Notes under the pieces: generated by a model
Seen by the model: only the letters and a program-made list of their open reading frames with translations
Told to the model about the DNA's origin: nothing
The model's database searches: none
In this document: positions 6,002 through 39,968 of the stretch, one piece after another
Layout of the letters: every line of letters starts with the position of its first letter
Numbering within the stretch: position 1 is the stretch's first letter
Assembly: GCA_051362555.1 (NCBI GenBank)
Contig: CM120648.1
Coordinates: 7,684,587-7,748,586, forward strand
Origin: Lingula anatina
Lineage: Eukaryota; Animalia; Brachiopoda
Reading direction: 5' to 3'
DNA: 64,000 bases
Translations under genes and position numbers: made by a program

Positions 6002-6182
6002 ATGACCTCGTACATGAGCTTAAAGAATCAGAAACGTCGTCGGAGTGTAGGGGGCGATGGTGTGCAGTCCACTGCCAACAGGGCCCAGATTCATTGGCTA
6101 CGGAGGTCCATATCTGTACTGACTTTCTGCAGTCCTCTGACACTGAAAGATGAACTTCTCTCCGATAACGATGAAGTTGAAG
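6002..6182 (+). CDS. aPKC: Candidate alternative first coding exon of aPKC (MTSYMSLKNQKRRRSV…SDNDEVE-G)
   Basis: ATG with A at -3, 60 open codons, then donor AAG|GTCAGG at 6182/6183 in phase 1. This joins in frame to the 6972 exon, giving …DEVEGDPC. No homology support for the peptide. Confidence 0.45.
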
Positions 6183-6971
6183 GTCAGGGAATATATTATA
6201 TTTTTCATTGTTATAAATTAGGTTGAATCTTTTGTCGTCTTTATATGTATGCTAGTATGGGTGTTTGAGTTATTATTGCAAAAATAGCATGAGTAGACTG
6301 ACACACAACATTGACAAGGCAAAAAAGCAACATATATTGTTACTTTTATTAATTAAGAGGAAGCTTTTGAAGTTTGATAATGTCCATTTTTCATAACTGT
6401 CAGTATTATGAGTCACTTCTGCTTTGGATGTATCCACTTACTAGTAATAATGGATGGTACATGCACATTAATATGGGGATTCAGTTTTAACCATCAAAAA
6501 CACTGTATCATGATTCCTTGTTAAAAACATCAGTACTGGTTTTATTGTCTTCTAGATCCCATCTATTACTTATATGCAAACTTTTGTATCAGTCTTAGTT
6601 CCCCACCACTGCTGTATGAATGTGCCACTGTCAGTGTGATTTGTGATAAAAGCAATGTCACAACTGTCACATTTTCACAGCTAACACAATATGATAGCAC
6701 GTACTTATCATTTTTGTACATTGGAGGGTAACACACACGCACACACAGAGGGAGAGAAAAGGAGCTTTTTAAATAAAGTAGAGTGAGCGTGTATGATGTG
6801 TGAGCAAGAGCGCATACACATATACATAATTATGCGCACACGAATATTTATTTTCTTTCTGGCTACTATGATGTAGCACTCTCAGACTAAGTTAGAAAGT
6901 TTTGGATTGCTATAACAATATAAATATACTATAAGTAAATTGTCACTTTATCTTTTATCTTGTTCTTTCAG

Positions 6972-7061
6972 GTGACCCTTGCACAGTGTCTTCTCAGATA
7001 GAGTTAGAAGAAGCCATCAGACTGTATGAAGTGAACAAGGACTCCGAGATCACCATACACA
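6972..7061 (+). CDS. aPKC: aPKC exon, PB1 domain second half ([30 protein letters not shown])
   Basis: ttctttcag| acceptor and |gtaagt donor; 90 nt; translation matches the aPKC PB1 domain. Confidence 0.96.
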
Positions 7062-8658
7062 GTAAGTTTCCCATGCCATTAGAAGATGATACTGAAGTAT
7101 TGACAATATTAACTTCTGCCTTGTGGGTTTTAGAGATGTGAAGTTATTGATGTGTGAGCCTTGAATCATGGTAATGGATTTACGCAAGGTTTTAAAACCT
7201 ATTTTGAAATGTACAATTGTTAAAATTTTCTACTTGAATGGCTACCCCTGAGATGACACAAATGATAAGAATGGCATATCAGTGTACATACATACAGCGC
7301 ATTCAGAACAGCTGACTAACAGATCCATGGACCAAATATGGACAACCCATTTGAATGCTTGTTGTGTAATCCCTGCAGGGAATCTACTCGTGTCTAATCG
7401 GGAATTAAGCGGCAAGCTTTTAAATGGGTCGCCATATTTGAACTGCGGAGCTGTTAGTCAGTTTTTCTGAATGCACTTGTGAAGATATCTGAGTTAATTG
7501 CCCAATGAGCCATGGAGATGTGGTTAATGGCCCATGTTAAACAAAAAGCTCATGTGACTGATGTTATTTCTCAAGAGATGGCCATCAGTATTCAAGTTGT
7601 GATCCATGTCTTGAGGATGGTTTGCTGTCTGGCACAACAAAATGTTATTACTAGTAAAGATTATTTTTTTGAGGGTGTATGTGTGTGTGTGTGTGTGTGG
7701 GATGGGGGTGGGGGAGGGGGAACTTTAAGATATAGAGAATAGGAGGGGGAAATGATGGGTACCGTAAAAAAAATCAGGATTTAGTGATGTACCAGTGCAT
7801 GTTTAACAAAAAGTTTCAAGAAAAACCCAGCCCAGAATAAGGGCAATGTGAAAACCAATAAGAATTTTCCCCACAACTAGAAAATATAATTCAGAAATAT
7901 TTAATAGTTAATTTAGATAATTGATAGTGAGTGTTCACAGCACTCAAACATCCAAGATTACATCATACCACATCACGCCATTTTGAGCCGTCTGGTTCGT
8001 TCTGCCCAGATAGACATACCTTGGTTCATAAACCCATGAATCATGTTATCTTGAGAAAGTACTCAATAGTGGAGACTGAGCTCAGTGTATGTCTGCAGAT
8101 AACATCCTAGTGCTAATGAAATAAAACCCTCAACTATCTCAGAGTTGATGAAATTGAACATCTCGCCTCCATGGAGACAGTGAAAAATAGGAGTTAACGA
8201 AAACTTAGGTATGATAAGAGGGAGAACTTTGCCAAATTATAGGGCATTACTGCACATTGAAAAAAATCTTTTGCGCAAACATCTAAATGGATATCTCCCA
8301 TTAGTCAATTATTGGAACGTTTTCACCAAATCATTGATGATATCTCTAAAAGGAACGTCATAAAGTACGTGGTAAATTAAATATCTTCAACATTTCATGA
8401 ACATTTTGTGTGTAAGCATGGGCTCAGTGGATCCAGATAAAAAAAATTTTTGCAACTTTTTTTTTTAATTATGAAAATGGACTCATGAGAATTGTGAAAA
8501 AGAATGATATATTGCCTGCCTCTTTGTATTTCTGCTGATGATCTTGTTGCATACTAGTAAAGATACATAGTCACTGTTAGTACTCCATAGTTGTCCTTTA
8601 TGGTAATTCCGCAATCTTTTCAAATCTGTAACAGGAGAACAAAAAAAAAAAGAACAGT

Positions 8659-8660
<2 letters not shown>

Positions 8661-8720
<60 letters not shown>
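8661..8720. repeat. (AG)n microsatellite
   Basis: Direct reading. Confidence 0.98.
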
Positions 8721-8721
<1 letters not shown>

Positions 8722-9015
8722 AAAAATTGTCGAATTTCAGATACATAATTTTACTATCACAAAATTATTTCTGTATAGTATATGTGGTGTTTTTACTGCA
8801 TAGAATACAGTAGAAGTTTAGAGTGTATTGCTTTTTAATTTTGTTGCTACCTCTCAATAGGAATGTTCTAATTTTAAGGGATTATGACTTTTAAAAAAGT
8901 ATCTGTAAAATTCACAACTTTGCCACCACTGAAGCTTACTGTTAGTTCTGTGATATGATTGGTTAAATAAGCTTTTATTTCATCAATAATAAAGCAGAGG
9001 TACTTTTATTTCCAG

Positions 9016-9066
9016 TTTTTCCAAATGTTCCTGAGAAGCCAGGATACCCCTGTATTGGGGAGGACA
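9016..9066 (+). CDS. aPKC: aPKC exon, end of PB1 (IFPNVPEKPGYPCIGED)
   Basis: ttttatttccag| and |gtgagt; 51 nt; phase 1-1; matches the aPKC FPxxPExPGxPCxGED motif. Confidence 0.96.
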
Positions 9067-10539
9067 GTGAGTACCATTCTTTTTTTATAATTGGTAAATT
9101 TTCAGATAAGTAGATGATATTGGCGGACTTTGTTTAAGTTAGAAGTCATATTGGACCAAGTGACCTGTGAGCTGAAAAGATAAAGTTGCCTATTATAGCA
9201 TCTTCTATTATAGCAATTTTTTTTTCGCTTAGCCATATCACCACTTTTATGTAAATTTGTTATCAAAATGGTTAAAATTTGACTAAAACAAGTCAAATCA
9301 AGCCCTTTTTCTTTAGCCAATTTCAGTAAGTTTTAGCATTTGGCTAAATTGGCGAGTGTTAGCACTACCCCAGCAATTTTTTTTCTAGACTTGTAAATTA
9401 TGCAAAAGCCACTGGCCAAACCCAAGTAGTGCTAGTTTAAACTTAGAGCAACAAAATCTTGAAAAAAAAATACTTGTAAACATAATATTTATTTCATCAA
9501 TGCAAACAACATATGAGTCAGTTTTTATTTATTTATTTATTTAGAAAATCTTAGCACTGAGTGTCTTCGACACTGCACTTGTGTTAGGCGTTATGAATAA
9601 ATTAAAGGGATAATAACACTTAATAACACAAAAAATGAATTTTCCTGGAGTAAACAACAATTTTCCCATACTTACCAATGGTTAATGAATCTATTTTTAC
9701 ATTCAAAGTTAGTCCCTGGTTTTTTTCTAAAATGTTTGGTTTTTTGTTAAAATCTCTTAAGAGATTTTAACAGAGTATAGCCTTCAATGGAGGTCACGTT
9801 GTCTAAAGACAAGATCAGATATCAGAATAATAGCTGTGACTGCTGTTTTTGTGGTAAAACAGAATATATTATATTTCTCTGAGTTATTCACAATGTTTTT
9901 ATTGTGAAATATAGATCTCATATGAAGAGTTATTATCCCTTTAATATGAATGGTTTGACAATTTACAAATGCCATTCATATCTTCCCCATCCCAATTAAT
10001 CCAATTAAACATAAAAGAGAAATTTAAGTACAATATGTCTGCTGATTGATGCTTGTCAATCAAGTTGGCTTTTATTTATGCCAACCCTAAATGAATTTCT
10101 CTGTTCAGCTAATATAAACGTCATTCTGCATTTGTTATCTTCACCACTCTCCCCAGTTGTAACGTATTTAGCCAGTGAAGTCCCCAATAAGATTATTTTT
10201 TTGAAAGAACTGTTGTCTTATTATTGATCTTGACACTTTTTGGCAAGTAAAACCGTGCTTGTAGTTAAATGGCTGAAAAAGAAAACTGTCAGATAAAATA
10301 GGGAAGTAGGTGGGGAAGAAATCATTGTTGTGGGATATGTGCAACTTTCATGTGAATATATCATTTTGCTTTATTAACACATTTTTCAAGAAGCCTCCCC
10401 CCCCCCCCCCCTCAATATATTGTGGTTTTACTTGGATGTTATGTTTTTGTGACAGATACAATTTATTCAATAACAAGTACCCTGAGTGTCAGAGCAACGT
10501 AAAAGCTAGCTTGTTAAATATATACCTTGTGATGGAGTC

Positions 10540-10799
10540 GCTTTTACTAGCTCTGACGAACAGCGACAATCTGAGGGCGTTCTTCTTCAAAATTTTGCCT
10601 AGGGCGCTTCCATATTTGGAAGTCACACGTCACAGCTGTGTCCTCCTGGATCCATATTTGGAAGTCATAAGTCTCGTACGTCACAGGTTTGGCCGCCTGG
10701 AGCTGCCTTTCCCGCCTCGCGCTGAAGTTATCTCGTGCAGACGAGACAAGAAGCAAAGTGCCTGACGAAGTTTGAATTGAAAATATCTTGCAGTCGAAG
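10540..10799 (+). promoter_or_regulatory. Intronic CpG-rich cluster of 2 CArG boxes, ETS cores and half-CRE sites; candidate internal promoter/first exon or enhancer
   Basis: CCATATTTGG at 10610-10619 and 10652-10661, each overlapping GGAAGT. ACGTCA at 10627 and 10678, CAGCTG at 10633, ~15 CpG in ~230 bp, and donor AAG|GTCAGT at 10799/10800. Confidence 0.6.
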
Positions 10800-12733
10800 G
10801 TCAGTGCCACAATAGAAGCAACATTCTGCTTTAAAACTGATTTTGGTGTAGCCATTGTGCAGCCCTTATAGTGGTATCGGGCATACAGTGTAGCTGTCAA
10901 ATTTGGCACACGGCAAGCACGTGTATTGCACACGTGTGCATCTCAGGACTAAATGTTCTTGGATATATCTTTTCTTTTTGAAGAATATTATTTATTTTTT
11001 CACTTTACATCTTAAATTCAGCAAATAAAATTAAATAAAGCAGAATTAAATCTGTTTTACGTTTCATTTTGGTCTGATGACATTCAACTGCAGATTCACT
11101 GCGGAGCAGTTCTATTTGATTGATGGAAGTGTAACATGGCCGCTGGTCACTAGAGCCGGTATTGTTGATATGGGTTATATATGAAATCAAGATCGAGCTG
11201 GCAATACCGGAATCTAGAACCTAGGGTAATAACAAGAAGCAGAGCTGGAAATAACATTTTATATCATTCTCATCCACACATTGGCAGCTACCTTAGTTTT
11301 TATAATAGAAACTCACTCAAAACAATACTGGGGCGTGAACTTGGTATTTCATATGCTGCATAAATGGTCTACAAAATGGAGACTTCTGATAGCACAAAAG
11401 GTTTTCAGGAAAGTGACAATATCCCGAGGCAAATATTTGATATGGAAAATGCAAAAGAGAAGGCAAAGGGACTAGAGTGAGATAAAAAGCATTTGTCATG
11501 TTTACATTAAATGACAGACAGACTATTTATGGTATTGATATTTCATTTGTCAAATTATCTGTGGGAAATGTGATTCTGCTTTAAAAATGTATACTCATGA
11601 CGTTTTGATAGAAAAACTCCATCGCTTTGTGCCTATTCATCACTGATAAATGAGAGGTTTGTGACTTATGAAACATAAATCATAACACTGAGACTGGGGG
11701 GAGCTGTTTTCGAAAGGAAATGGATACATCCTTCACTGTTCAAAATTCCTATAAATTTGATGACATATTTGTTCAGCAATATTGCATTGATGCATCCTAT
11801 CCATAAGTATGTGTCTAGACGTTATCTAGAGACTTTGAAAAAAAAGTATTTTTTTTTTCGCTGCTAAAAAATTGCATCCTTTCTCATTCCTCCTAAAATG
11901 AATTATGCGACCGTTTTATGAGGTATGTCTGAAAAATGGAAATAATGTATATATTGATAAGAAAACCAGTCTATCATACAGTTGAATTTGATAACTGAAC
12001 GGGAACGGGAAGGACCACATTCTCTTCAGCTGCCATATAGATAATGATATTATACAGTCACTAGTTTTAGCTGTTGAGCATTGGCAAACAAATTATGGGA
12101 AGTATATAAATTCTACCTGTCAATGAAAAAAAAAAAAATGAATAGAAAAGGGTGTCTGAATAGGAAGAGCAGACTGTATGTAGGATTTGCACTGTAGGTG
12201 GCACTACACAGCATGACGCTCCTTGCACCTGGGCTAGCACCTGTGTTCTCAGCATGATGAGCTGTAACACTGTTCTAATATGGCAGTATTATTAGCAGAA
12301 AAATCATGAGTAATTACACTAATAGGGAAGGAAAACTGTGAGATGAGGTTTCAGTATTAGATGCCCTGGTTGCTGATATAGATAAGGCTTTGTATTTTGA
12401 GGGTGTCATTTTTTGCCACATGAAAATTATTCTGGAAGAAGGGAGACTGAAATACGAGATACTTAAGATTAAGATATTTCATATATTTTTGCTGCCAAAT
12501 CACACTAACAATCAAAAATGAAGATCATGTACATCGAGTCATTTGGAGGAAATTGCATATGAGAAAAGGATTTTTCTCTCAGTCCTTTTATATTGCACAA
12601 AGGATTGTAGGATGTGATATTACAAGGTTGCTCTGATAAGAGGCAATTTGCTCAGGCCTTTATTCTTGGACGATGCTGTATACAGTCTTTATAATGACTA
12701 TGTGCTCATGGCTGCATCTGCTACGATTTCCAG

Positions 12734-12819
12734 GAAATATGTACAGAAGAGGTGCACGCAGATGGCGGAAGCTGTATCGTGTCAACGGCCATCTTTTCCA
12801 GGCCAAGAGATTCAGTAGA
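12734..12819 (+). CDS. aPKC: aPKC exon, pseudosubstrate and start of C1 ([29 protein letters not shown])
   Basis: tttccag| and |gtaagt; 86 nt; [11 protein letters not shown] is the diagnostic aPKC pseudosubstrate. Confidence 0.98.
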
Positions 12820-13300
12820 GTAAGTAGGCCAAAATTGAGAAAAAAAATAGTTGTTTATAGTTATTATTATTATAAATACAATTGTTTTTGCATGTCCAAA
12901 AGAGCTAATAACGATTGCAGCTAACTGTGCATAATTATAAAGTGGTGCGGTTTTATTGTGTCAGTATATATGTATATGTATTTCAGGTAATCCTGTCTGT
13001 CAGCAGGGTACATACTAGCAAAAATTGACAGATCTAAGCATTCATTCATTTATATGTCAGTTTGTATCAATCAAATTAAAAGTTAATATAAATATTACAA
13101 ATTTTGTACACATTTTATATGTAATATGTTGTGAATTTTTCTTTATATATTGATCCATTCATTCATTCAGCAATCCGTCCATAAACTCATTTATTTATTC
13201 ATTTATTCATTCATTTATTTTTTCATTGTGTCTGTTGTATGTGTAAGGATAGAAATTTTATGTTTTCCAATTTGTGAAACGGTTGTCCTATATATTTCAG

Positions 13301-13432
13301 CGGGCATTCTGTGCATACTGCTCCGACAGAATATGGGGTCTGGGTCGCCAGGGTTACAAGTGTATCACATGTAAACTGCTCGTTCATAAGAAATGCCACA
13401 AACTAGTCCAGATTACCTGTCAAGCACAGTTG
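13301..13432 (+). CDS. aPKC: aPKC exon, atypical C1 domain ([44 protein letters not shown])
   Basis: atttcag| and |gtaatt; 132 nt; C1 Cys/His pattern. Confidence 0.96.
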
Positions 13433-14076
13433 GTAATTATTGCACTCTCACTGTCTGTCACATTCAGTACTATCACACCTAACACAATTGCAGAGCAGTT
13501 TAATGATAATATTAGATAATTGTCTTCTTTAAACCTTGCTACACATACTTCTCAGTGCTGCTTAGCCTTACAGAATTTATATCAATACATTTTATGACTA
13601 GTAAGTCTAAAACTAAAAAAATTCATATCTATAAAACAGAAATGAAAGCTTAAAGAGATGAATTAGCAATGTTATTTTTGAAGTGAAAAGGTTTGTAAAA
13701 TTTCTCTTAAATTGCACTTAAGATTTAACTAATAGTTTTCTAAACAACAACTAAACTCATTATTTTCACCACTGTTATAAGTTGAAATTCCTGGCACAGC
13801 TGATGAATATCTTTTGGTGGACTTTCTCTCCCAAAATTTGAATTTTGCTAAATAAATTATAATATTGCACGATTGCAATTTCCGTATCAGTCATAGATAA
13901 GTGCATAGAAAACTGAATGGCACGCTTTAACCTCTTCAAAGTATTATAAATAAAAGACCCAAGAAGTTTTGCTCAGTCATATTTAAAACCATTAGTCTTC
14001 AGAACCAGATCAGTAATTCCTTACAACATGTCACATATCATGCATATTACAACAGGCTGCACAACCTTCATTCTAG

Positions 14077-14205
14077 GAACACACAATCCGACCTTTGACC
14101 TCATCCTCGTCACTTCCACCTATGCCAGGTCACAATGGCACAGAGGCGACACCTAGGGGCCATTCTCCAAGTAAATCCATGGATGATGCTTCTGAAGCAC
14201 CAGAG
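14077..14205 (+). CDS. aPKC: aPKC hinge exon (EHTIRPLTSSSSLPPMPGHNGTEATPRGHSPSKSMDDASEAPE)
   Basis: ttcattctag| and GAG|gtaggt; 129 nt; open phase 0-0; GC-richer than its flanks; Pro/Ser-rich as expected for a hinge. Confidence 0.8.
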
Positions 14206-14679
14206 GTAGGTTAAGGGAAAGATGGAATTCTCTAGAAAAATATTATCTTTTGAATAAAGTAGATGAGATTCTTTTCTAGTGAAGCTTTTAATTTTGCCTT
14301 GCATCAACAACTATTAATCTATACTCTCTTAGAAAGTAACACTGTTTTCTTAGAACAAGTTAATATATCTTTTGCACATTAGAAATGAATCTAACTTACA
14401 GCTAGAACACATCTAGAACAATTTGTATTTAAAGCAGGCAATGTTTTTACATAAATTTACATATTTCTGTGTGGCATTGCCATCGATAAAGGAACAGTTT
14501 AGAAAATAAATTGATTTTGGTGTTATACGTGTAACTTTTTGGGAACATTTCAATTCACTGATGTTTTGTGCATGAGCATGGAAATTTGCTTACCTGGCAG
14601 TCAAGTGCTTCACATTTTCTGAACCCATTGTATATGTGTGTGTGGTTGGTGTCAGTGCCATAGTTGTTTTTAGCTTCAA

Positions 14680-14835
14680 ATAACACAATGCGGGAGACTG
14701 TCACACCTAACACATTTCCAGAGAATGTCACACCTAACACAATTTCGGGAAATGTCACACTCATCACAATCATGTTAATGAGACAGTGAGCACAATCAAG
14801 GGTTAAACCTATCACAATCCAGGAAAAAATCACAA
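14680..14835 (+). repeat. Degenerate ~27-bp tandem repeat (tgtcacacctaacacaatttc…)
   Basis: Copies at 14701, 14728 and 14755 plus decayed flanks. Confidence 0.8.
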
Positions 14836-15595
14836 CCATTGCCATAATGGCAACTACCCCACACTTGTGTGGCTTATATCTGATACCATTTCGTAGTGCT
14901 TGGTTTGCCTGGTTCTCTCAGTACACTTATTGCAGTCCATTTTCGTACCTTTTTGCTTTTCATAAACGTTGAGTTTGAATTGTTTATGAGGCAAAAGTGT
15001 TTAGTTCTTCGCAAAGATTTAAAATAGAATCTCAAATGTGTGAGGCTCACTTTTCTTTGTATTAGCTTTTTATCTTAGTGTTGGGCTACATGTTTTGTCT
15101 ACAGTGAAAAGACTATACCAGCATGATAAAAAATACCCTTCTGCACAACCTTACATACCATGTCATGCATGAAGGTCTGTTGAATCATCTTTGAGCTCTT
15201 TGCCTAACTCTTTCTAAGTGTTAAGCATAATGGGCAGATTCAGTTTGTGTGTGTGTGTGTGTGTGTGTTTGGGGGGGGGGGGGGGGGGGGTCTGGCGCTG
15301 GTAAAGAGCCCCATGCCCTTACTTCACTTGCTTCTGCCAAAAGCATGTGGCTTTTTTCAAGCATGTTTTTTCCTCAATGGATCAGTTGCCATGTGCACTA
15401 CAACAGCATAATACAAGGTGCATGTACTAATAAGCATGTACTAATAATGGTGTGGGTAGTCTGTGCAAAAAAATGCTTTCCTCTCTCCCCCCAGGCTGTT
15501 GACCTCTTTCACCTTTGCTCTTTAACTAGAAAGATAACCAACTTGTTCTTGGTGTAGGAATGATAATTTTCTTACTCTGATATTTATTTCCTTAG

Positions 15596-15643
15596 ACCAC
15601 CAAAGTAGAAACTGTGGAAAATTCAGAATCACTGGAAGATGAG
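15596..15643 (+). CDS. aPKC: aPKC short hinge exon (TTKVETVENSESLEDE), possibly a cassette
   Basis: tttatttccttag| and GAG|gtatca; 48 nt; symmetric phase 0-0; purine-rich; open frame. Confidence 0.7.
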
Positions 15644-16634
15644 GTATCATGCTCCGTAAATATCTGAAATAATCGCTTAATAATGATTTTAATCTGAAGT
15701 GGTCAGATAACTTTGTACTCTGCCTTCCTTAAATTTGCTCTCTTGCAAACTTATATATATGCTTTGACAGGTTTACTTGATTTGTGATATGAAAAGATGT
15801 TTGTTTCATGATTTTACATTAATGAAAAAGTAGTACCCTGCTTTTAAACCAACATAAGATGCAACATCTTTTTTATTATTATTTTTGTTTGTTTTTTATT
15901 TAACACTTACTTGGAGTTGAAAGTTTTTATCAATCAAAAAATGATCACCGTGTAACTTATTAAACCTAATATATTCATTGGTGATTTTATAATAAAGACT
16001 GGATTGGGCACAATTTTGTTCATTGCATATTAAACTTCTGATCAATAATTTTTCATAGCTTTGTGGCATTTCAAATTCATGTTAATTTTCAAAACTAACC
16101 CTATATTTCTTAATTTTTTTCTTTTAAACTTTTGGAAGCATAACATCCTTTTCATTCCCATTTTAAAACATTGAACTAAGTCTAATTCATTTTATTCTAC
16201 TGGCATATATATATATATATATATATATAAGACAAATAACATAAAGCTTTAAAGTGTAACATAATGCTTATTAGGTATTGTTTACATTATTATTATTATT
16301 ATTATTATTGTTATTATTATTGTCTTTACCTATAAAGTCAAGTTCATTCAAATTGAAAGAGAACATGGAGAAGTGTAATTTTTGTCACATTGTCAAATCC
16401 ATTAATGTTGAAAAATTTGGGAGACTGTGGTTATTTCTATAAAAACAATGTGTGCAGCCAAAAGATCTCTCTACAGAATAGTTGAGAATCTCCAAATTTG
16501 TTAAAAAAAAGTCGCACCAAAACAGAACTTTTCAAAGTTGGACTAAGACACACTTGTGCACATTTGCTCTAATGCATTCCTAAATTCCACCAACTTTACT
16601 TTTATACATATATGGTATTTATTATGTGTTTTAG

Positions 16635-16802
16635 ACCACTGCTACAGAGACAGCAACAGGAGCCATCAGCCTAAGAGATTTTGAGTTGCTGCGTGTAATT
16701 GGACGAGGTAGTTATGCCAAAGTCCTCCAGGTGGAGCTGAAGAAAACAAAACGTATCTATGCCATGAAGGTCATCAAGAAAGAGCTGGTCAATGACGATG
16801 AG
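16635..16802 (+). CDS. aPKC: aPKC exon, kinase subdomains I-II (…[46 protein letters not shown])
   Basis: ttttag| and |gtaagg; 168 nt; the GRGSYAKV glycine loop is aPKC-specific. Confidence 0.97.
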
Positions 16803-17350
16803 GTAAGGACCTAAGATTGGTGCTTCATATTCAATTCAAATGAGCTCTTTGTCTATGCACATGTGGAAAAGTGCATCTAGTGCCTTTCACTTCCTCTGTC
16901 ACTGATTCAAAAAGACCGTGGACACACCGAGTAGGTAGTTGGTAAGAGGGGAGATGGGTAGGGAGGAAGTGGTAGAAATACAAGTGGAATAAGAATAGTT
17001 GTTTGTGTTGTCACTCGGCTCTCTGAGATAGACAAAGTGTGATATTTAAAAAAGAAATTGCTCTTCTATCCCACTAGAATTCAGCATATAGGGAAGGACA
17101 TCAACAGGTAAAGGTATTTGATGTGAAAGGGAAACTGGAAAAGATTTATGTGACTTAAATCATTGCTTAAGTGAGGCAAAGGGAGGAGCATATAATTGTT
17201 TAAATAAATTTTGGATTGGCTTTGGTGGTTTGATAGCTGCTTGATGACTGTGAACTATCCTGAACTATATCTGATCGTCACTTTTTATTATATGTACAAA
17301 AAATCTAAAAACGATGTTAAATATAATTTATTAATCTTTTATCACTACAG

Positions 17351-17448
17351 GATATAGACTGGGTCCAAACAGAAAAACATGTATTTGAGACAGCATCCAA
17401 TCATCCTTTCCTTGTGGGACTTCACTCTTGTTTCCAGACTCCTAGCAG
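17351..17448 (+). CDS. aPKC: aPKC exon ([33 protein letters not shown])
   Basis: ctacag| and |gtaaga; 98 nt. Confidence 0.97.
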
Positions 17449-17560
17449 GTAAGAGTTCCAATCTTGTTTCTTGACTCCTTACTGGTAAGAGTTCCACTCT
17501 TGTTTCCAGACACTGAGTAGGTAAAGGGTTTCAGTCTTGTTGTTCTGCTCATTAGTTAAG
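17423..17560 (+). repeat. 36-bp tandem duplication spanning an exon/intron boundary (3 clear copies, 1 decayed)
   Basis: cactcttgtttccagactcctagcaggtaagagttc and variants at 17423, 17459 and 17495. Confidence 0.9.
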
Positions 17561-17969
17561 ATGGGAATCCCATTGTAAAAGTTGAGGTAGACCCTTATCT
17601 ACCATTCTGTTTAGTGAAGTAAGAAAAAAAGGTTACTAAGTGGCATACACTTTCTTGTAATCACTGATTTGATTTTGTACCTTCTAACTAAAAATTGTAA
17701 CATGATCGTTCCATGTATCTTTTGGATAAGTGATACTACATAATATACATAAAAAAAATAATGTTTGACAACAACAACAACAACAATAATAATAATAATA
17801 ATGGTCATGATGATGATAATAAGAATAAAGATTCTCATTATAATGTTTTCTTAATTAAATCACTCATTTTGTTCCACCCACACTCTTTCATCCTAATATG
17901 CTACCCTATTCCCATGCTCTGTTAGGCTGTGTACGTGGTAACCTTGTTAATGATATTCCTGTTTTGCAG

Positions 17970-18106
17970 GCTGTTCTTTGTCATAGAGTTTGTCAATGGT
18001 GGAGATCTGATGTTTCATATGCAGCGACAGAGACGTTTGCCTGAGGAACACGCCAGGTTTTATGCAGCTGAAATTATACTGGGACTCAATTTTCTTCATG
18101 AAAGGG
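17970..18106 (+). CDS. aPKC: aPKC exon ([45 protein letters not shown])
   Basis: gttttgcag| and |gtaatt; 137 nt. Confidence 0.97.
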
Positions 18107-18511
18107 GTAATTTGACATGAAACATATGCAAGTTCCTTTATGTATTGGTTTGGATTTTGTAGAAAATTAGACTTTTTGTAGCAAATGACATTGTGAAGAT
18201 TGAGTGAAGGATAAGGAATTAAAAAGAATTTCATTAAATATAATTTGCTACGCAGTCAACAGTATATTAAGATAATTAATTTATGTTATTTGATTAATGG
18301 TCAGTTTGATGGCTAAAGTGTTTAGAATGAAATAAGTATGTGTTTGTGATATGTTAATTAGATGATTCAGGAACTGTTTGCACTGGTCTAAGCCATATAT
18401 GTCTGATGACCACATACTGTCCTCTTGGACTTTGTAGGTCACATACTCTCCCATACTCTGGAGGTCACATATTGACCTTCTTAAATCTGAAGGTAACGTT
18501 CTGTACTCTGA

Positions 18512-18685
<174 letters not shown>

Positions 18686-19512
18686 TAAAAAAAAAGGCAA
18701 CTTTGATATGAGACACCAAGGAATATTGTTGTTCCTTTCTTAGTATTTCAGTATATTTTTGAAAGCATTTTAGTGCACTCTGTCAGGTGGTAAACTAAGT
18801 GTTCTTTTTTCCCATCACTGGGTAGCATAAATTATTTTATCGAAGATGAAAAGCCTGTTTAGACTAGATATTAATTGTCTATTGTCAATGACAAAAAGTA
18901 ATTTTAATATCTGGTTGCATAGAGTGATATGAATTTGTTTTGATATATCAGTGATCAAATTAAGTGCCCTATGATCTATATACTTTGTATTTTAGATTAT
19001 TTTTATAATGATAAAAATAATGTATATTATTAATTTATTATCAAAATGTTAAAATATCTGCTAATTTTGCTTGATAAAGATGCCATTGCTGAGAGAAGAA
19101 GTCGCTACTGTATTGTATTACAGGCATAGTAGTCTCATTTGCTTGTGTTCTCAGACCGACTTCTGTTTTGGAGATCTCATATTTACAGACATTTTGTATC
19201 ATGGTTTCATCGGAGTGTGTTTGGGCTAACCTCACTTTAAGAATTTTAACATCAAAGCATGATTGGTTTTGAACATTCAGTTTGTGTTTGTGTGATATAC
19301 AGATGTTTTTCAGCATAACCATGATAAAAAATGTGCTTTTACACTTGTTTTGTTAGAAAAGATTTTGATTTGTGTGTACAGAATAACAGTATTTTTGACA
19401 CAAATAATCAAACTTTTGCTTGCTATTGAGAAATATATGCAATCTGGCCTTGAAATGTATACAGGGTGACTGTAATGAAGGGTTTATTTTTTCTATATAT
19501 CGTAAAGTCTTT

Positions 19513-20210
19513 GCCTGTCCCAGTTTATAGCCCACTCCTTCTGGTTACCCCTTGTTCCTGTTTATAGCCCCCTGCTACTGGTCACCACCTGTCCCAGTTT
19601 ATAGCCCACTGCTACTGGTCACCACCTGTTCCAGTTTATAGCCAGATCCTTCTGGTCACCCTTTGTCCCAGTTTATAGCCCACTTCTACTGGTCACCACC
19701 TGTCCCAGTGTATAGCCCATGGCTACTGCTCACTGCCTGTCTCAGTTCATAACCCAAAACTACAGATTACAACCTATCCCAGATTAAAAGCCACTGCTAC
19801 TAGTCACTGCTTGTCCCAGTTCATAGCCAACTGCTACTGGTCACTACCTGTCCCAGTTCATAGCCCATTACTACTAGTCACCACCTGTCCCAGTTTATAG
19901 ACCACTGGTACTGGTCACCACCTGTCCCACTTAAGTGCCCACTGTTAATGGTCACCACATGTTCTAGTTTATATCCCCCTGCTACTGGTCACCACCTGTC
20001 CCAGTTTAGTGCCCACTGTTAATTGTCACTGCTTGTTGTAGTTTATAGCCCATTGCTACCTGTCATCATCTGTCCTAGTTTATAGCCCATTGCTACTGGT
20101 CACCACTTGTCCCAGTTTAGTGCCCACTGTTAATGGTCACCATCTGTCCCAGTTTATAGCCCATTGCTACTGGTCACCACCTGACATGGTAATATAGCCA
20201 ACTGCTTCTA
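19513..20210. repeat. Minisatellite, 37-bp unit x ~18-19 (cctgtcccagtttatagcccactgctactggtcacca)
   Basis: Direct reading; diverged copies, with a gtttagtgcccactgttaat subvariant. Confidence 0.95.
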
Positions 20211-20260
20211 GCATGCTTTGTATATGGCATGTAAATGCATTTTGCATGGCTTCTTTTCAG

Positions 20261-20348
20261 GAGGGTATCCGGCCAGGAGATAGTACAAGCACGTTTTGTG
20301 GCACACCTAATTACATCGCCCCAGAAATGTTGAGAGGGGAAGATTATG
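20261..20348 (+). CDS. aPKC: aPKC activation-loop exon, variant A ([29 protein letters not shown])
   Basis: ttcttttcag| and G|gtttgt; 88 nt; phase 0-1. Confidence 0.95.
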
Positions 20349-20721
20349 GTTTGTATTGTTACCATGCATTGATGATTGAGGAGATGGGAGTTTGAACTGT
20401 AGGTGGGGCTGGTTGTCAAGACATTTTTGTGATGGAAAGGTTTTTTAAATTCTGGATGAAAAGTTGTGAATGTAAGCAATGTAAAAGTTATGTTGCTAAT
20501 TTGAATTATCAGCCAAGTGGAAAGGAAAAAAAAGGAGATGGAAATTTAAAATGTTTGTAAGACAATTTAGCTCCCTTACAGTTCAACTGCTTTATCTCCT
20601 CAAAGATTCTTTTGGATGTTTTCTTTTTTTCTTTTTATTTATTTATTTATTTATTATTTCCATTTGTCTTCTTTTTTATTTTTACTTTCACTGTAGGCAC
20701 ATATCGATGCTTGCATTGTAG

Positions 20722-20809
20722 GAAGGTCTGTACCCGGGAGAAACCACTTCCACGTTCTGTGGGACTCCTAATTACATAGCTCCAGAAATATTACGTGGAG
20801 AAGACTACG
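20722..20809 (+). CDS. aPKC: aPKC activation-loop exon, variant B ([29 protein letters not shown]), probably mutually exclusive with A
   Basis: cattgtag| and G|gtagta; 88 nt; same phases as A; 24/29 aa identical to A. Too short to appear in the ORF track. Confidence 0.88.
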
Positions 20810-21970
20810 GTAGTAGATGAATGAAAAAATATATTGAGAAAAAACATCTTGCCGTGTGCTCTTGCTGCTTGGTTTCCTTGAAATATTTTAATCAGTTCTT
20901 GAGTATAGCATGCAAACAGATGGTTAATCAGAGAAGTGAATATTCTGTATATTGACATAATAAGAAATCGAATGCCTTTTTATGTGCTCTTGTTGCTTGA
21001 TTTTCTCAAAATGTGTACTCAAAATTGAGATTTGGCATGACAAAATAGTGGTATGCTTCAGGTACATGAAAATTAAAATAGGAAAGATTAGTCAATCCAA
21101 ATTACTTTCCTGTATTTTTTAACTACATTCTTTCTGTAAATAATTGCACGAATTAAAATTGTTTCTTGATCAAATTCAAGCAAATGTTCTCTTTTATAAA
21201 AAAAATACAGGATTATATGAAGCAAATGCTTTTAAAATTGAAAATGAAAAAAAATTGTACTTGTTTGCAGTGATATTAACTATTGCTACTCACAGTTTGA
21301 TGATGTCAGGGTACGCGTTTTTATAAGTTACTTAATGTCAAGTACTGCATCAGGGCATAAATATTGTCTGTGACTTTGCTGTAATGGCATGGGGTAAGAG
21401 ATGAAGTTGTCAATGAATTCGCCTGTTAGAAGATTACACAAGATATTTTTCAAAGCATTGCCAGATGGTTCTCCAATTCGAGTATTGTTGAAAGTGAATT
21501 TTTTTATCATTCTGCATCAGAATGTTTCTTTATTGTCTTTCATTTTGAAGTTAGCCTTCAGAATTTCATGTTATTTGCTTTTTATACCTGCTGTTGTTTT
21601 GTGCAAGTTTTTATCCACCTTTGTTTGCTTTGTTTTGTTTATTGCTTTACATTTAATTTATGTGAATGAACGTAATATAAATTGATAACTCTGTCTCTGT
21701 TATACTTATAGTAATATGGTTTATTTTTTCTACATTTATTTCCCCTTTTGTGCTATATAAGAAGAGCAAAGGAAAATTGCTGTTGTTGATTTATGTGTAT
21801 TTTTAAGTTTCTCACAATTAAGTGAAAAATACTATGTTTTTGGAAAAAGATTATTATGTAAAAAAAAAGATTATTTATTAAGAATTAATTTGGATATGAT
21901 GTCTTTTTAAATAAATTAGTATATTAAAGTGAAAAAAAAACAAAATCAGTGAAATGTCGTCTGCTTTCAG

Positions 21971-22096
21971 ATTTCAGCGTAGATTGGTGGGCCCTCGGTG
22001 TTCTTATGTACGAGATGATGGCAGGAAGGTCACCGTTTGATATTGTAGGGGGTGCTGAAAACCCAGACCAAAATACTGAAGATTATTTATTCCAAG
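21971..22096 (+). CDS. aPKC: aPKC exon ([42 protein letters not shown])
   Basis: ctttcag| and |gtatgg; 126 nt. Confidence 0.97.
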
Positions 22097-22370
22097 GTAT
22101 GGATGCAAAAGATGACCGAGTTTTCCCAAATATATGACATAAAATGTGTCTTTCCTCATCCAGCTTATAGATGCGTTGCTGTGGTCTGGATTCCAACCAT
22201 ATCTACACTGTATTAAAAGGCCAATTTATAGGTTTCACTAAACTGTGCAGAAAATGGAATATCTTCAAGGTTGAATTTAATTTGGTGTTAAAAAAGTGGA
22301 ATTAGCAGAAAGTATCTTAGTTTGCATGTTTGGTAAGTCATTTACCTAATGCGACTTCTCTTTATTTCAG

Positions 22371-22450
22371 TCATCCTGGAGAAGACTATCCGTATCCCCA
22401 GGTCTTTGTCTGTGAAAGCTGCGTCAGTACTGAAAGGATTCCTGAATAAG
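22371..22450 (+). CDS. aPKC: aPKC exon ([27 protein letters not shown])
   Basis: tttatttcag| and |gtaata; 80 nt. Confidence 0.97.
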
Positions 22451-23139
22451 GTAATAAGAGACCATTCCCAGACCCTATCGTTTTAACTTTGGATCGAACT
22501 ATCTCCAAGGGGATTCTAGCTTAATTGCAATCAACTTTGATGGCCATAGATGTCTGTCACGCCTACTGAAGCTGATACGGGGTAATTAACTATCATTTAG
22601 CAGCTTTAGTAGGTGTCCGAGACATCTAAGCCACTTATGATGAAAGCAATTTAGCAAGAAACCCTGTGGAGGTGGACTGATCCTGTTAGATGGGAACCCA
22701 GTCTAAGGTATTTGTCATCAGTTGATGTGGTGTTGTGGAGTTAGGTGTCAGACTGGTTCATTTTCAAAAAGGTGCTACCAGGTAGTCATATTTAATTTTA
22801 TTAAGCAAGGATTTGACAAAGATTTGAATAAATATGGGTGAAATTTGTCTGCCTGTGTGGGGTTGTCAGGACGTCAGACATACTTATCACTGGACTTCAT
22901 CTACTGAGTCTTATTTCTGTCAACTCTAGTGTATGTTGACATGTGGTAAGCCCTAAACTAGCCTCATGTTAGAACACTTTATAAAATAATCTTACTAGCA
23001 TCAAATTTGCTGCTTTAATTAATTTTGATCACTATATTGATTTTGAACTACCATTGCTTTATTTGAATAGGTCAGGTCTATATTTGAAAGACTTGTTGAT
23101 AAAATCTTCTCCATGTACAACTTTTTGTTTTCTATTCAG

Positions 23140-23345
23140 AATCCACAAGAGCGCCTTGGCTGTCACCCACAGACCGGCTTTGCAGATATACAGTCACATC
23201 CATTTTATCGACCAATCGATTGGGACCTCCTTGAAAAGAAGCAGGTGACGCCACCCTATAAACCCCACGTGAAAGACGAACGTGATTTGGAGCACTTCGA
23301 TCCACAGTTTACTAATGAGCCAGTACAGCTAACGCCAGATGACAC
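23140..23345 (+). CDS. aPKC: aPKC exon, AGC C-tail with turn motif ([14 protein letters not shown]…[17 protein letters not shown])
   Basis: tctattcag| and |gtgagt; 206 nt. Confidence 0.97.
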
Positions 23346-23627
23346 GTGAGTGTTTGAATAGACCTTGTTTTTTGTTTTAAGAAATTTGTGAAACATGTTT
23401 CCATTTTGGACAGCTAGATCGTAATCACTTTACAAAAAAAGGAAGAAATTATTGAAAAAATTGGGCAGGATAATTTATCCAGAACAACTCTATGAGAGGC
23501 TGGAAAGAAATTAGTAGAGACCTTCAGTCTATTTATTAAATCAATCAAGCATTTCTCTGACCATACTTAGACTTTTCATGCAGTTTCTTGAAATATATCA
23601 TGATCCAACTACTTTATTTCTTTACAG

Positions 23628-23715
23628 AAAAATAATTTCCAAGATTGATCAAACAGAATTCGAAGGCTTTGAGTACATCAATCCGTTGTTGATGTCGATG
23701 GAGGACTGCGTGTAG
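23628..23715 (+). CDS. aPKC: aPKC last coding exon ([28 protein letters not shown])
   Basis: ttctttacag|; FEGFEY hydrophobic motif with phosphomimetic Glu typical of aPKC; C-terminal EDCV PDZ-type ligand; TAG at 23713-23715. Summed exon lengths keep the frame. Confidence 0.97.
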
Positions 23716-37682: not shown

Positions 37683-38804
37683 CTATACGCTATTTTGCAC
37701 CAACGGTTTTGTCTGGGCATTCTTGTCACAGGTTTTCACACAGTCAAGATCAACTGTCGTAGATGTTGTTTTTGGGATGGACACTTCACTTTTCTGCTTT
37801 TGCCGTTTCTTCTTGTACTTCGCTGCTTGCTTGCCACAGAGACACTCCTTCATGAGTTGTCGGAACCTCCGTCCAACTGTACAGTATATAATAGGATTTA
37901 TAGCACAATTTAAGGTAACCAGCGCGTTGTTAAAAGGCACAAAATAATTCTGGTAAGTCTCTGATTTTTCCCCAATGGCGTTGTACACGGCGACTGATAT
38001 CGAAGGCAATTGACAGGTAATGAACACGAGGACATTGATTACCAGTACCATTGTTATGTTGGTATCGTAGTTGTCTCCCCTGCCCATTCTCTTCCTGCTG
38101 AGTCGCTGCTGTCTTAGTGCCATGATGATCTTGGCGTTCATTACGAGAAGAATGAGCAACGGGCCAAGAACGTAGACCATGAAATCAAAGACGGCCGTGT
38201 AGACTACCTTGTACGAATGGGTTTTAGCCAAGTCGGTGAACCGTAGAACCGCCTTTGAATAATCGGTGCAGTTGATGTGCTCTACGTACGCCTCGAAGAA
38301 TTTCGGGGTGTTGTATATTAGGAGAAATACGGTAAGAACAACTACGCCATATTGAGCATATTTCATGTTGTTCAAAGTAGTGTATTGGTAGGGCCTGCAC
38401 ATGGCAATGAAGCGCTCGGTTGCCACTAAAATCAGGAACCATTTGCTTGCCGTATTCGCCATGCTGTGGAAAGGCCACATGTAAGCTTCCATGTAAGCGT
38501 AAATCCCGTGATAGAACACGATGCACTGTCCCGTGTTCAGGCAGAAATTTGGTACCACCACCATGAAAAAGGTCGAAGTTAAGAAACAAAAGTCTGCGCA
38601 TGAAAGAGACCGAAGGAGATAGAAGTGAACAAGCTTCGTCTTATCCTGCAGCAACACAAAGTAGGCCATCACGTTCCCCATAATTCCAAACACGCAAATG
38701 GCCCCCATCACCCAGACTGTGAAAGCGTATTTGTATTCCCAAGCCGGGTTTTTGCTTTCGTCGCAGTCGAGTATTGTTATATTATCTTCTCCGATGTTGG
38801 CCAT
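37683..38804 (-). CDS. Rhodopsin-like (class A) peptide GPCR, FMRFamide-receptor-like, 373 aa, intronless CDS
   Basis: Seven hydrophobic segments; GN in TM1, LSCAD in TM2, ERFIAMCRP after TM3, YNTPKFFE after TM4, FITCQLP in TM6, NPIIY in TM7; N-terminal NIT sequon; C-tail CLC. The ligand cannot be assigned. Confidence 0.93.
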   Translation of the reverse strand: MANIGEDNITILDCDESKNPAWEYKYAFTVWVMGAICVFGIMGNVMAYFVLLQDKTKLVHFYLLRSLSCADFCFLTSTFFMVVVPNFCLNTGQCIVFYHGIYAYMEAYMWPFHSMANTASKWFLILVATERFIAMCRPYQYTTLNNMKYAQYGVVVLTVFLLIYNTPKFFEAYVEHINCTDYSKAVLRFTDLAKTHSYKVVYTAVFDFMVYVLGPLLILLVMNAKIIMALRQQRLSRKRMGRGDNYDTNITMVLVINVLVFITCQLPSISVAVYNAIGEKSETYQNYFVPFNNALVTLNCAINPIIYCTVGRRFRQLMKECLCGKQAAKYKKKRQKQKSEVSIPKTTSTTVDLDCVKTCDKNAQTKPLVQNSV

Positions 38805-39968
38805 TTTGGAAAGTTAATAAATTAAAAGCACTTGTAAAAAAATTGTACTTTGTTGATTTTAAGTCAGAATGATATCCTTTGGATTTTACAGAGACTTGGT
38901 GATTCGGGTTCTTTTTTAAGTCTAAAATAATACCTATGCAACATTGTTAAGTTAACGATAAAGATACATAATGGAGAGTCTGGTTCACTTTTCGACCAAA
39001 TCCCAAATTCTGCACTCAGTTCTTGACTCTGGAACAGAGCCTTCAATCTAAAGGCGTCCAAAATCCACCTTTACTGATAATTCATGTAACAATTCTGACC
39101 AAAATGGCTTACGCACCATCACTGCTTGTGGCTTATCTTCATATATATGTGTGTATGCGTGAGTGTCTCTCTTTTGCCACAAAACCAGTGGGAGGGTTCT
39201 TTAGGCGGCCGTGTAATCTAAACAGTGACCATTTCTCATTTCTTCCTACAATTTTTCACTGTGGCTTTGGCGTGCTTTCAGAGTGACCGTTCAAAGTGAT
39301 CCACCACGCTGCTTCTAAAATAAGCGAATTTCTGTGTATCTAGTGAAATATAGACCATTTCTATAACCATTTCATACAGTAGTAATGATATATCTGAAGG
39401 TCCCAAAAGTACAATATCTGTTTTAACACTTGGTTCCAAGTTCCAAGAACTGTATGAGTTTGTCTATTTAAATTGCAGGATTCCAAGACAATGGTAAGCT
39501 CTAATAATCTCCGTTATGTCTACAGAGTAGTAGTGATGAACCATGTAATACTGGTAAACGTGCCGCGAAAATCGTAATTCCTAGATTAAATGATCGTTAA
39601 ACGCCATCGATATATGGACCTCTCTTATGAGTTCAATCAGTCTTTTCTTTCACGTTATTAGGATCACGTGTCATATCCATTCAAAATCTGCAAATAAATG
39701 GAAGCGGATCTTAAAAAAATACACTTCAAATTGTCGGTTTGCACAAAAAATCAGCTATGTGAAAACACATGTCCAGCTATCGCCTGCTTTTATAGAGATG
39801 TAATTTCAAACAGATTGTGAGTTTAATTAAGCGTTGCAACCAGACCAAAAAAACTTCAGAAATCTCATCCTTTTTAAAGCTACTTTCAAAAATGTAAGAG
39901 ATAAACACGTAATAGCACACTTATTACCATTGAAAAATACTGCACCGTATCCAAAGGTAAAAACTTAC

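Follow-up and report, generated by a model that had tools for sequence, protein, structure and literature searches.

Organization of the aPKC gene and its two activation-segment exons

The sequence examined here is a 64-kb stretch of Lingula anatina DNA (contig CM120648.1, positions 7,684,587 to 7,748,586; hereafter the window). It contains a gene for atypical protein kinase C (aPKC) in which two tandem exons, designated A and B, encode alternative versions of the activation segment of the kinase (Table 1). The gene matches the RefSeq proteins of this species, and the exon flanking the swapped segment was 100% identical to Lingula anatina 'protein kinase C iota type'. Pfam analysis of aPKC proteins P0125 and P0009 revealed PB1, single C1, Ser/Thr kinase and PKC C-terminal domains, and the best PDB matches were to PKC-iota (E 1e-13; other kinases 1e-6). 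Judged from its sequence, the gene belongs to the atypical PKCs, its closest relatives being PKC iota and zeta. Exons for residues 1-72 of RefSeq isoform X1 were not found within the window.

The initial annotation of this DNA had described two 88-nt exons, 373 nt apart and in the same phase, whose products differ at five of 29 residues and in which 14 codons carry synonymous changes; all of these figures were confirmed. Each copy is preceded by AG and followed by GT. The two are identical at 63 of 88 nucleotides (E 1e-14 between the copies, far beyond chance), and their 29 codons comprise 10 identical, 14 synonymous and five non-synonymous pairs, the residue differences (A/B) falling at exon positions 3 (I/L), 4 (R/Y), 7 (D/E), 8 (S/T) and 23 (M/I). 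Non-synonymous divergence (dN) was 0.17 and synonymous divergence (dS) 3.4, the latter saturated, by the NG86 method; two other methods yielded no value. The reading frame into the next exon is kept with A alone or B alone, and inclusion of both or neither leads to an early stop, in line with the frame shift noted before. RefSeq isoforms X1 and X2, which carry A and B, respectively, differ in nothing else. No third copy was detected by tblastn within the window (next E 0.037).

The exon corresponds to residues 402-430 of human PKC-iota, and its position 11 to T412, the activation-loop phosphosite. Each copy encodes the activation loop with the PDK1-site Thr, the P+1 loop and the APE motif, and all catalytic and phospho-site residues are identical in the two forms; the differences cluster N-terminal to the phospho-Thr, plus the residue after APE. 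Thus, the proposal of two kinase cores from one gene was right about the two forms, but 'cores' overstates a five-residue difference. In the PKC-iota-Lgl complex, the T412 phosphate and Y419 contact substrate arginines (PMC11996676; here and below, articles are cited for their accessible parts), and the equivalents of both residues are retained in A and B. An AlphaFold model of the B form, with a kinase-domain pLDDT below 50, was not used.

Table 1 Features of the window
Feature	Position	Strand	Description	Basis
aPKC coding span	6971..23712	+	PB1 part, C1, hinge, kinase, C-terminal tail	exon mapping and Pfam
Alternative first exon	6002..6184	+	RefSeq isoform X4	
Hinge exon	15590..15640	+	16 residues	
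Upstream constitutive exon	18594..18679	+	catalytic loop, DFG-equivalent (DYG) motif; phase-0 donor common to A and B	junction reads, match to P0009
Tandem repeat	19514..20183	+	37-nt unit, 18 copies	
Three GCATG	20211..20248	+	one full TGCATG; less than 60 nt from A acceptor; candidate Rbfox-type silencer (putative role)	motif search, post hoc
Exon A	20261..20348	+	88 nt; R4/D7/S8/M23; major form; RefSeq X1 XP_013393560	sequence, junction reads
U-rich tract	20615..20721	+	long; ends at unused AG (20695-20696), 25 nt upstream of B acceptor	sequence; reads use 20722
Exon B	20722..20809	+	88 nt; Y4/E7/T8/I23; minor form; RefSeq X2 XP_013393561	sequence, junction reads
Downstream constitutive exon	21971..22096	+	phase-1 acceptor common to A and B	junction reads
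Long single open reading frame	37683..38813	-	rhodopsin-family seven-transmembrane receptor	Pfam

Usage of the two exons in RNA

RNA evidence came from four of the nine runs available by species label (runs X1, X4, X7 and X9, from three studies), a joint being listed when supported by three reads from two starts within a run. All four joints expected from the initial annotation were found. The joint into A (18679>20261) had 111, 8, 25 and 20 reads in X1, X4, X7 and X9, respectively, and the joint out of A (20348>21971) 166, 5, 4 and 8; for B, the corresponding numbers were 0, 7, 4 and 2 (18679>20722) and 0, 4, 3 and 2 (20809>21971). Each exon was thus joined to both flanking exons, with totals of 347 junction reads for A and 22 for B. 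In contrast with these 369 single-exon reads, no joint between A and B (20348>20722) or skipping both (18679>21971) was listed above threshold in the four runs, not even in X4, which carries intronic reads. A and B are used mutually exclusively, as had been anticipated; frame-shifted forms with both or neither could, however, escape detection through decay. Two variants were listed inside exon A, both of them synonymous.

That B is a dead exon or an artefact of the assembly has negligible probability. The deepest run, X1, had no B junction among 277 reads, which would fit such a copy, but B was spliced at both ends in three of the four runs, belonging to two of the three studies, and these junction reads refute it. 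Synonymous change between the copies is saturated with the frame intact, and counterparts exist in other genomes. A B exon that is never spliced in and is absent or decayed in relatives, the outcome named beforehand as fatal to the proposal, was therefore not what we found.

The share of B at the upstream junction ranged from 0% to 47% by run, and X1 (0/111 B) differed from X4 (7/15 B) with a Fisher probability of 7.6e-8 on reads and 7.9e-6 on read starts. Several facts weigh against reading this as regulation by tissue. The run labels are coded; X7 and X9, from another population or a close relative, depart from the window at numerous fixed sites; X4 with its intronic reads represents a different library; and the B junction counts are small. 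Because the runs are coded and differ in study, genotype and library, differences in the ratio need not reflect tissue.

Isoform pairs in other animals

We compared 17 isoform pairs, chosen for differing loops. In 15 of them (12 named species), the difference was confined to the 29-residue segment: Lingula, the gastropods Aplysia, Biomphalaria and Physella, and eight bivalves (Mytilus californianus, M. edulis, Ostrea edulis, Magallana gigas/angulata, Saccostrea echinata, Mercenaria, Ruditapes and Mya). The other two pairs, which had differences outside the exon (2, and 253 through a length offset), were excluded from this count. Each of the 11 molluscs in the comparison, whether gastropod or bivalve, had a form with N10 and V23. 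In Aplysia, the cloned PKC Apl III (NP_001191516) has K4/T8/G10/I23 and RefSeq X1 (XP_035828559) M4/K8/N10/V23, both proteins having 610 residues. Gene models of Pinctada and Mytilus coruscus contain both copies in series with the I23 form leading, and oysters carry three exon versions, as in Ostrea edulis (P0153, P0150 and P0152), one of which also alters residues after APE (Q25, H/L27). Double-scoring matches P0001-P0006 and P0187 proved to be repeated or mis-joined gene models and not an exon-swap event.

Outside spiralians, no isoform variation in the segment was observed among the proteins listed for ticks (14), sea urchins (12) and sea cucumbers (6), nor was there an isoform pair among 27 named arthropod aPKCs, a set with no Drosophila sequence. 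The 197 named non-spiralian aPKCs had 25 distinct segments; one mis-joined model was left out, and D7 and I23 were invariant in the remaining 24. Elsewhere, M23 was present in one chiton and one bryozoan protein.

Tandem exons in metagenome contigs

A motif scan of metagenome contigs covered at least 122 loci. An isolated 88-nt exon flanked by AG and GT was found in at least 46 contigs, and two such exons in tandem in at least 15 (14 distinct pairs), the intron between tandem copies measuring 318-3715 nt. Contig L017 was excluded from the exon counts since it reads through to the exon that follows, L047 gave no segment, and L075 and L076 are one contig. Among the matches listed, 14 of the 15 tandem contigs had D7/M23 in the first copy and I23 in the second (with E7 in 13), which matches the window in order and signature. 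The fifteenth (L098 followed by L097) was bivalve-like, with W4/S10/I23 and then N10/V23. One contig, L036, carries the upstream exon, A, B and the downstream exon together. Two others, L007 and L030, include both flanking exons but hold just one copy, at identical boundaries; hence it was an already existing ancestral exon that was duplicated in full.

The flanking exons of the 14 tandem contigs were 95-100% identical to P0215. In a protein tree built without the alternative segment, P0215-like proteins formed a clade of their own (98/91), separate from those of molluscs, Lingula, nemertean, bryozoan, ecdysozoans and deuterostomes, and we infer that the clade is likely annelid. K4/E7 is stable in the B form of this main clade. 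A degraded extra B-type exon copy was observed about 180 nt upstream of an intact B (L066:1666-1758). In three further loci (L053, L096 and L105), aPKC has no intron before the segment, an intron after ...MLRG, M23 and a loop like that of the protein of the bryozoan Watersipora; their lineage seems to be without the exon boundaries that the exon switch needs.

Age and origin of the duplication

Since dS is saturated, and tandem copies or matching isoforms occur in molluscs and another spiralian clade, the earlier suggestion of an old duplication with purifying selection on both copies is supported. The duplication would date from early lophotrochozoan history, and at least from before brachiopods and the likely annelid clade separated. 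As D7 and I23 are fixed in all 24 non-spiralian segments, M23 in A and E7 in B appear to be derived and shared. An exon DNA tree (47 rows, 87 columns) grouped window A or B with no other lineage, so that a shared origin with Lingula rests on the order and these two residues.

It is somewhat unlikely, on the present data, that the exons are exclusive and old but arose by separate duplications in the brachiopod, annelid and mollusc lineages. Orthologous genes frequently acquire tandem exons convergently (PMC9741552), the exon tree result is in keeping with separate events, mollusc copies differ in signature and number (two or three), and both I-to-M and D-to-E are easy changes. Convergence would, however, have to account for the same order and derived residues in the window and in all 14 likely annelid tandem contigs listed (again with E7 in 13), for the lack of both M23 and E7 in the 24 named non-spiralian segments, and for M23 in the chiton and bryozoan proteins. 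Against a single early duplication, it should be noted that molluscs have I23 first and V23/N10 second, with no simple mapping on A and B, and that our protein queries were B- or N-type and thus biased against finding M23 in outgroups. A single form was seen in a chiton, Solemya, Mactra, Gigantopelta, the land snails Candidula and Bradybaena, the nemertean Tubulanus and Watersipora, on the basis of one or two records each.

Putative control of exon choice

Exclusivity would be achieved mainly through regulated exon choice, together with nonsense-mediated decay of the frame-shifted products with both exons or neither. The A-B intron of 373 nt is not obviously steric, with branch-like motifs at 20369 and 20496. 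An inverted-repeat search between the flanking exons for docking/selector RNA pairing gave AT-rich, low-identity repeats only, and no candidate stood out. The acceptor of exon B itself has a weak pyrimidine tract. The 37-nt tandem repeat ends about 80 nt upstream of exon A.

Two motifs deserve attention. The acceptor of A is the only acceptor-like AG site in the 64 kb with three GCATG (2 of 3498 AGs, both at the A junction; post hoc), and GCATG occurs 31-41 nt upstream of A in all four contigs of a second related group. Within 200 nt downstream of B, ACTAAY was present in 14 of 19 main-clade contigs (17 sites versus 2.1 expected by Markov resampling), compared with one of 19 downstream of A. 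In human cells, Quaking binding downstream of an exon is associated with inclusion and binding upstream with skipping (PMC9122611). We treat these motifs as hints, not proof, of a switch towards B of the muscle or nerve type, and tissue factors of the Quaking or Rbfox type would be likely to favour B. On the other side, GCATG was not enriched upstream of A in the main likely annelid group (3/19), no ACTAAY was found near B in the window, and the motif counts involved many tests on related sequences, although near-identical flanks were merged. A separate observation concerns B-type exons (L004, L006, L046, L058, L070, L075 and others), after which the first 20 intron bases are conserved amid diverged introns, unlike after A; these bases represent a possible splicing element.

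Possible consequences for the kinase

Taken together, one aPKC gene very probably has two tandem activation-segment exons of which exactly one is spliced in, and the resulting five-residue difference likely adjusts kinase activation or the docking of partners according to tissue. Variation at the residues N-terminal to the phospho-Thr would act on PDK1 priming, on the dynamics of the loop or on contacts with other proteins, with catalytic and substrate-pocket residues fixed across both forms. In protein kinase A (PKA), the residues one and three positions before the loop Thr dock the regulatory subunit, and on account of this equivalence exon positions 8 and 10 are plausible contact sites. A and B may differ in activation or substrate choice.

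The Tyr introduced by B is present in Lingula but is lineage-specific and not a conserved feature: the second forms of relatives have K, W, V, M or A at position 4. A Tyr phospho-switch as a conserved function was rejected on this basis.

Alternatively, the two forms could be functionally equivalent, and the duplicate kept for regulation of mRNA amount (for example, by unproductive splicing and decay) or by plain purifying selection, which we regard as improbable. The identity of all catalytic and phospho-site residues, the mostly conservative differences, the early stops in products with both or neither exon and the variation of B-specific residues between lineages are compatible with equivalence. 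Copy-specific residues are nevertheless stable within lineages (N10/V23 in 11/11 molluscs, K4/E7 in likely annelid B), and joints producing both or neither were not listed, even in the run with intronic reads.

Relation to known systems

Tandem homologous kinase-domain exons are already known. Vertebrate JNK1-3, as well as MAPK14 (p38-alpha) and FYN, have such exons that are used one per transcript, with few differences, old and conserved, like A and B of aPKC, and the alpha/beta exons of JNK (MAPK8/9/10) change substrate affinity (bioRxiv 10.1101/119891; PMC9741552). However, the JNK exons encode the F-helix and the following loop, the activation loop being constitutive (10.1101/119891), and those of FYN the SH2-kinase linker and N-lobe (PMC9741552), whereas in aPKC the activation segment itself is swapped. 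For Drosophila aPKC (FBgn0261854), a tandem duplicated exon substitution is listed, with the region not stated (PMC9741552, table S4), and the accessible part of PMC4022466 gave no further detail on this event.

Known molluscan aPKC splicing comprises the hinge inserts of Aplysia PKC Apl III and a C1-less form in Helix. These differ from the present event in that they concern the hinge or C1 and affect cleavage to PKM, the kinase domain being treated as common (PMC6539039). In their accessible parts, molluscan aPKC papers report hinge and C1 splice forms only (PMC6539039, PMC7104321, PMC13282866, 10.1101/620633 and PMC3517905). We found no description of an activation-segment exon swap in aPKC in the openly readable literature (subscription papers, such as the Apl III cloning paper, were outside this scope). 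Exactly the same event is represented by Lingula X1/X2 and by mollusc RefSeq isoforms such as the Aplysia pair, through automatic annotation only. Thus, the event is real, expressed, conserved and visible in automatic annotation, but apparently undescribed. The apparent novelty lies in what is exchanged, namely the activation segment of a kinase with major roles in polarity and memory, in several lophotrochozoan groups.

Vertebrate PKC-iota and PKC-zeta differ at exon positions 4 (R versus G) and 28, and the aPKC forms likewise vary at position 4. The difference given in the initial annotation (LRPG in iota, LGPG in zeta) was right. The paralogue-like parallel drawn from it holds for variation at the same site but not for a resemblance of B to zeta, as neither A nor B copies the zeta residue, Gly at position 4; moreover, iota and zeta are separate genes that differ along the whole protein.

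aPKC is the core polarity kinase and, as PKM, occupies a central place in studies of memory in Aplysia and land snails; in that literature, invertebrates are credited with a single aPKC whose kinase domain is common (PMC6539039). Should the segment be exchanged according to cell type, work with constructs, phospho-T-loop antibodies or kinase-domain primers may have covered just one of the two enzymes. The Aplysia pair includes an apparently unstudied form of the memory kinase and is directly testable. The two forms also provide natural variants with which to study how an AGC kinase is tuned by residues beside its PDK1 site, and a dated example of an exon being duplicated in place of a gene. 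A more far-reaching view, which we put forward tentatively and hold to be less than an even chance, is that the switch is lophotrochozoan-wide, of Cambrian age and set by cell type, that PKM Apl III comprises two catalytically different enzymes of which one has been cloned and studied, and that splicing in spiralians parallels vertebrate gene duplication.

Other features of the window

The hinge exon of the window aPKC is absent from RefSeq isoform X5 and sits where Aplysia splice inserts govern calpain cleavage to PKM. The alternative first exon of X4 replaces the N-terminal half of the PB1 domain, and X6 has another alternative start. Finally, the long open reading frame on the reverse strand matched Pfam 7tm_1 (E 9e-23) and Srw (E 5e-14).
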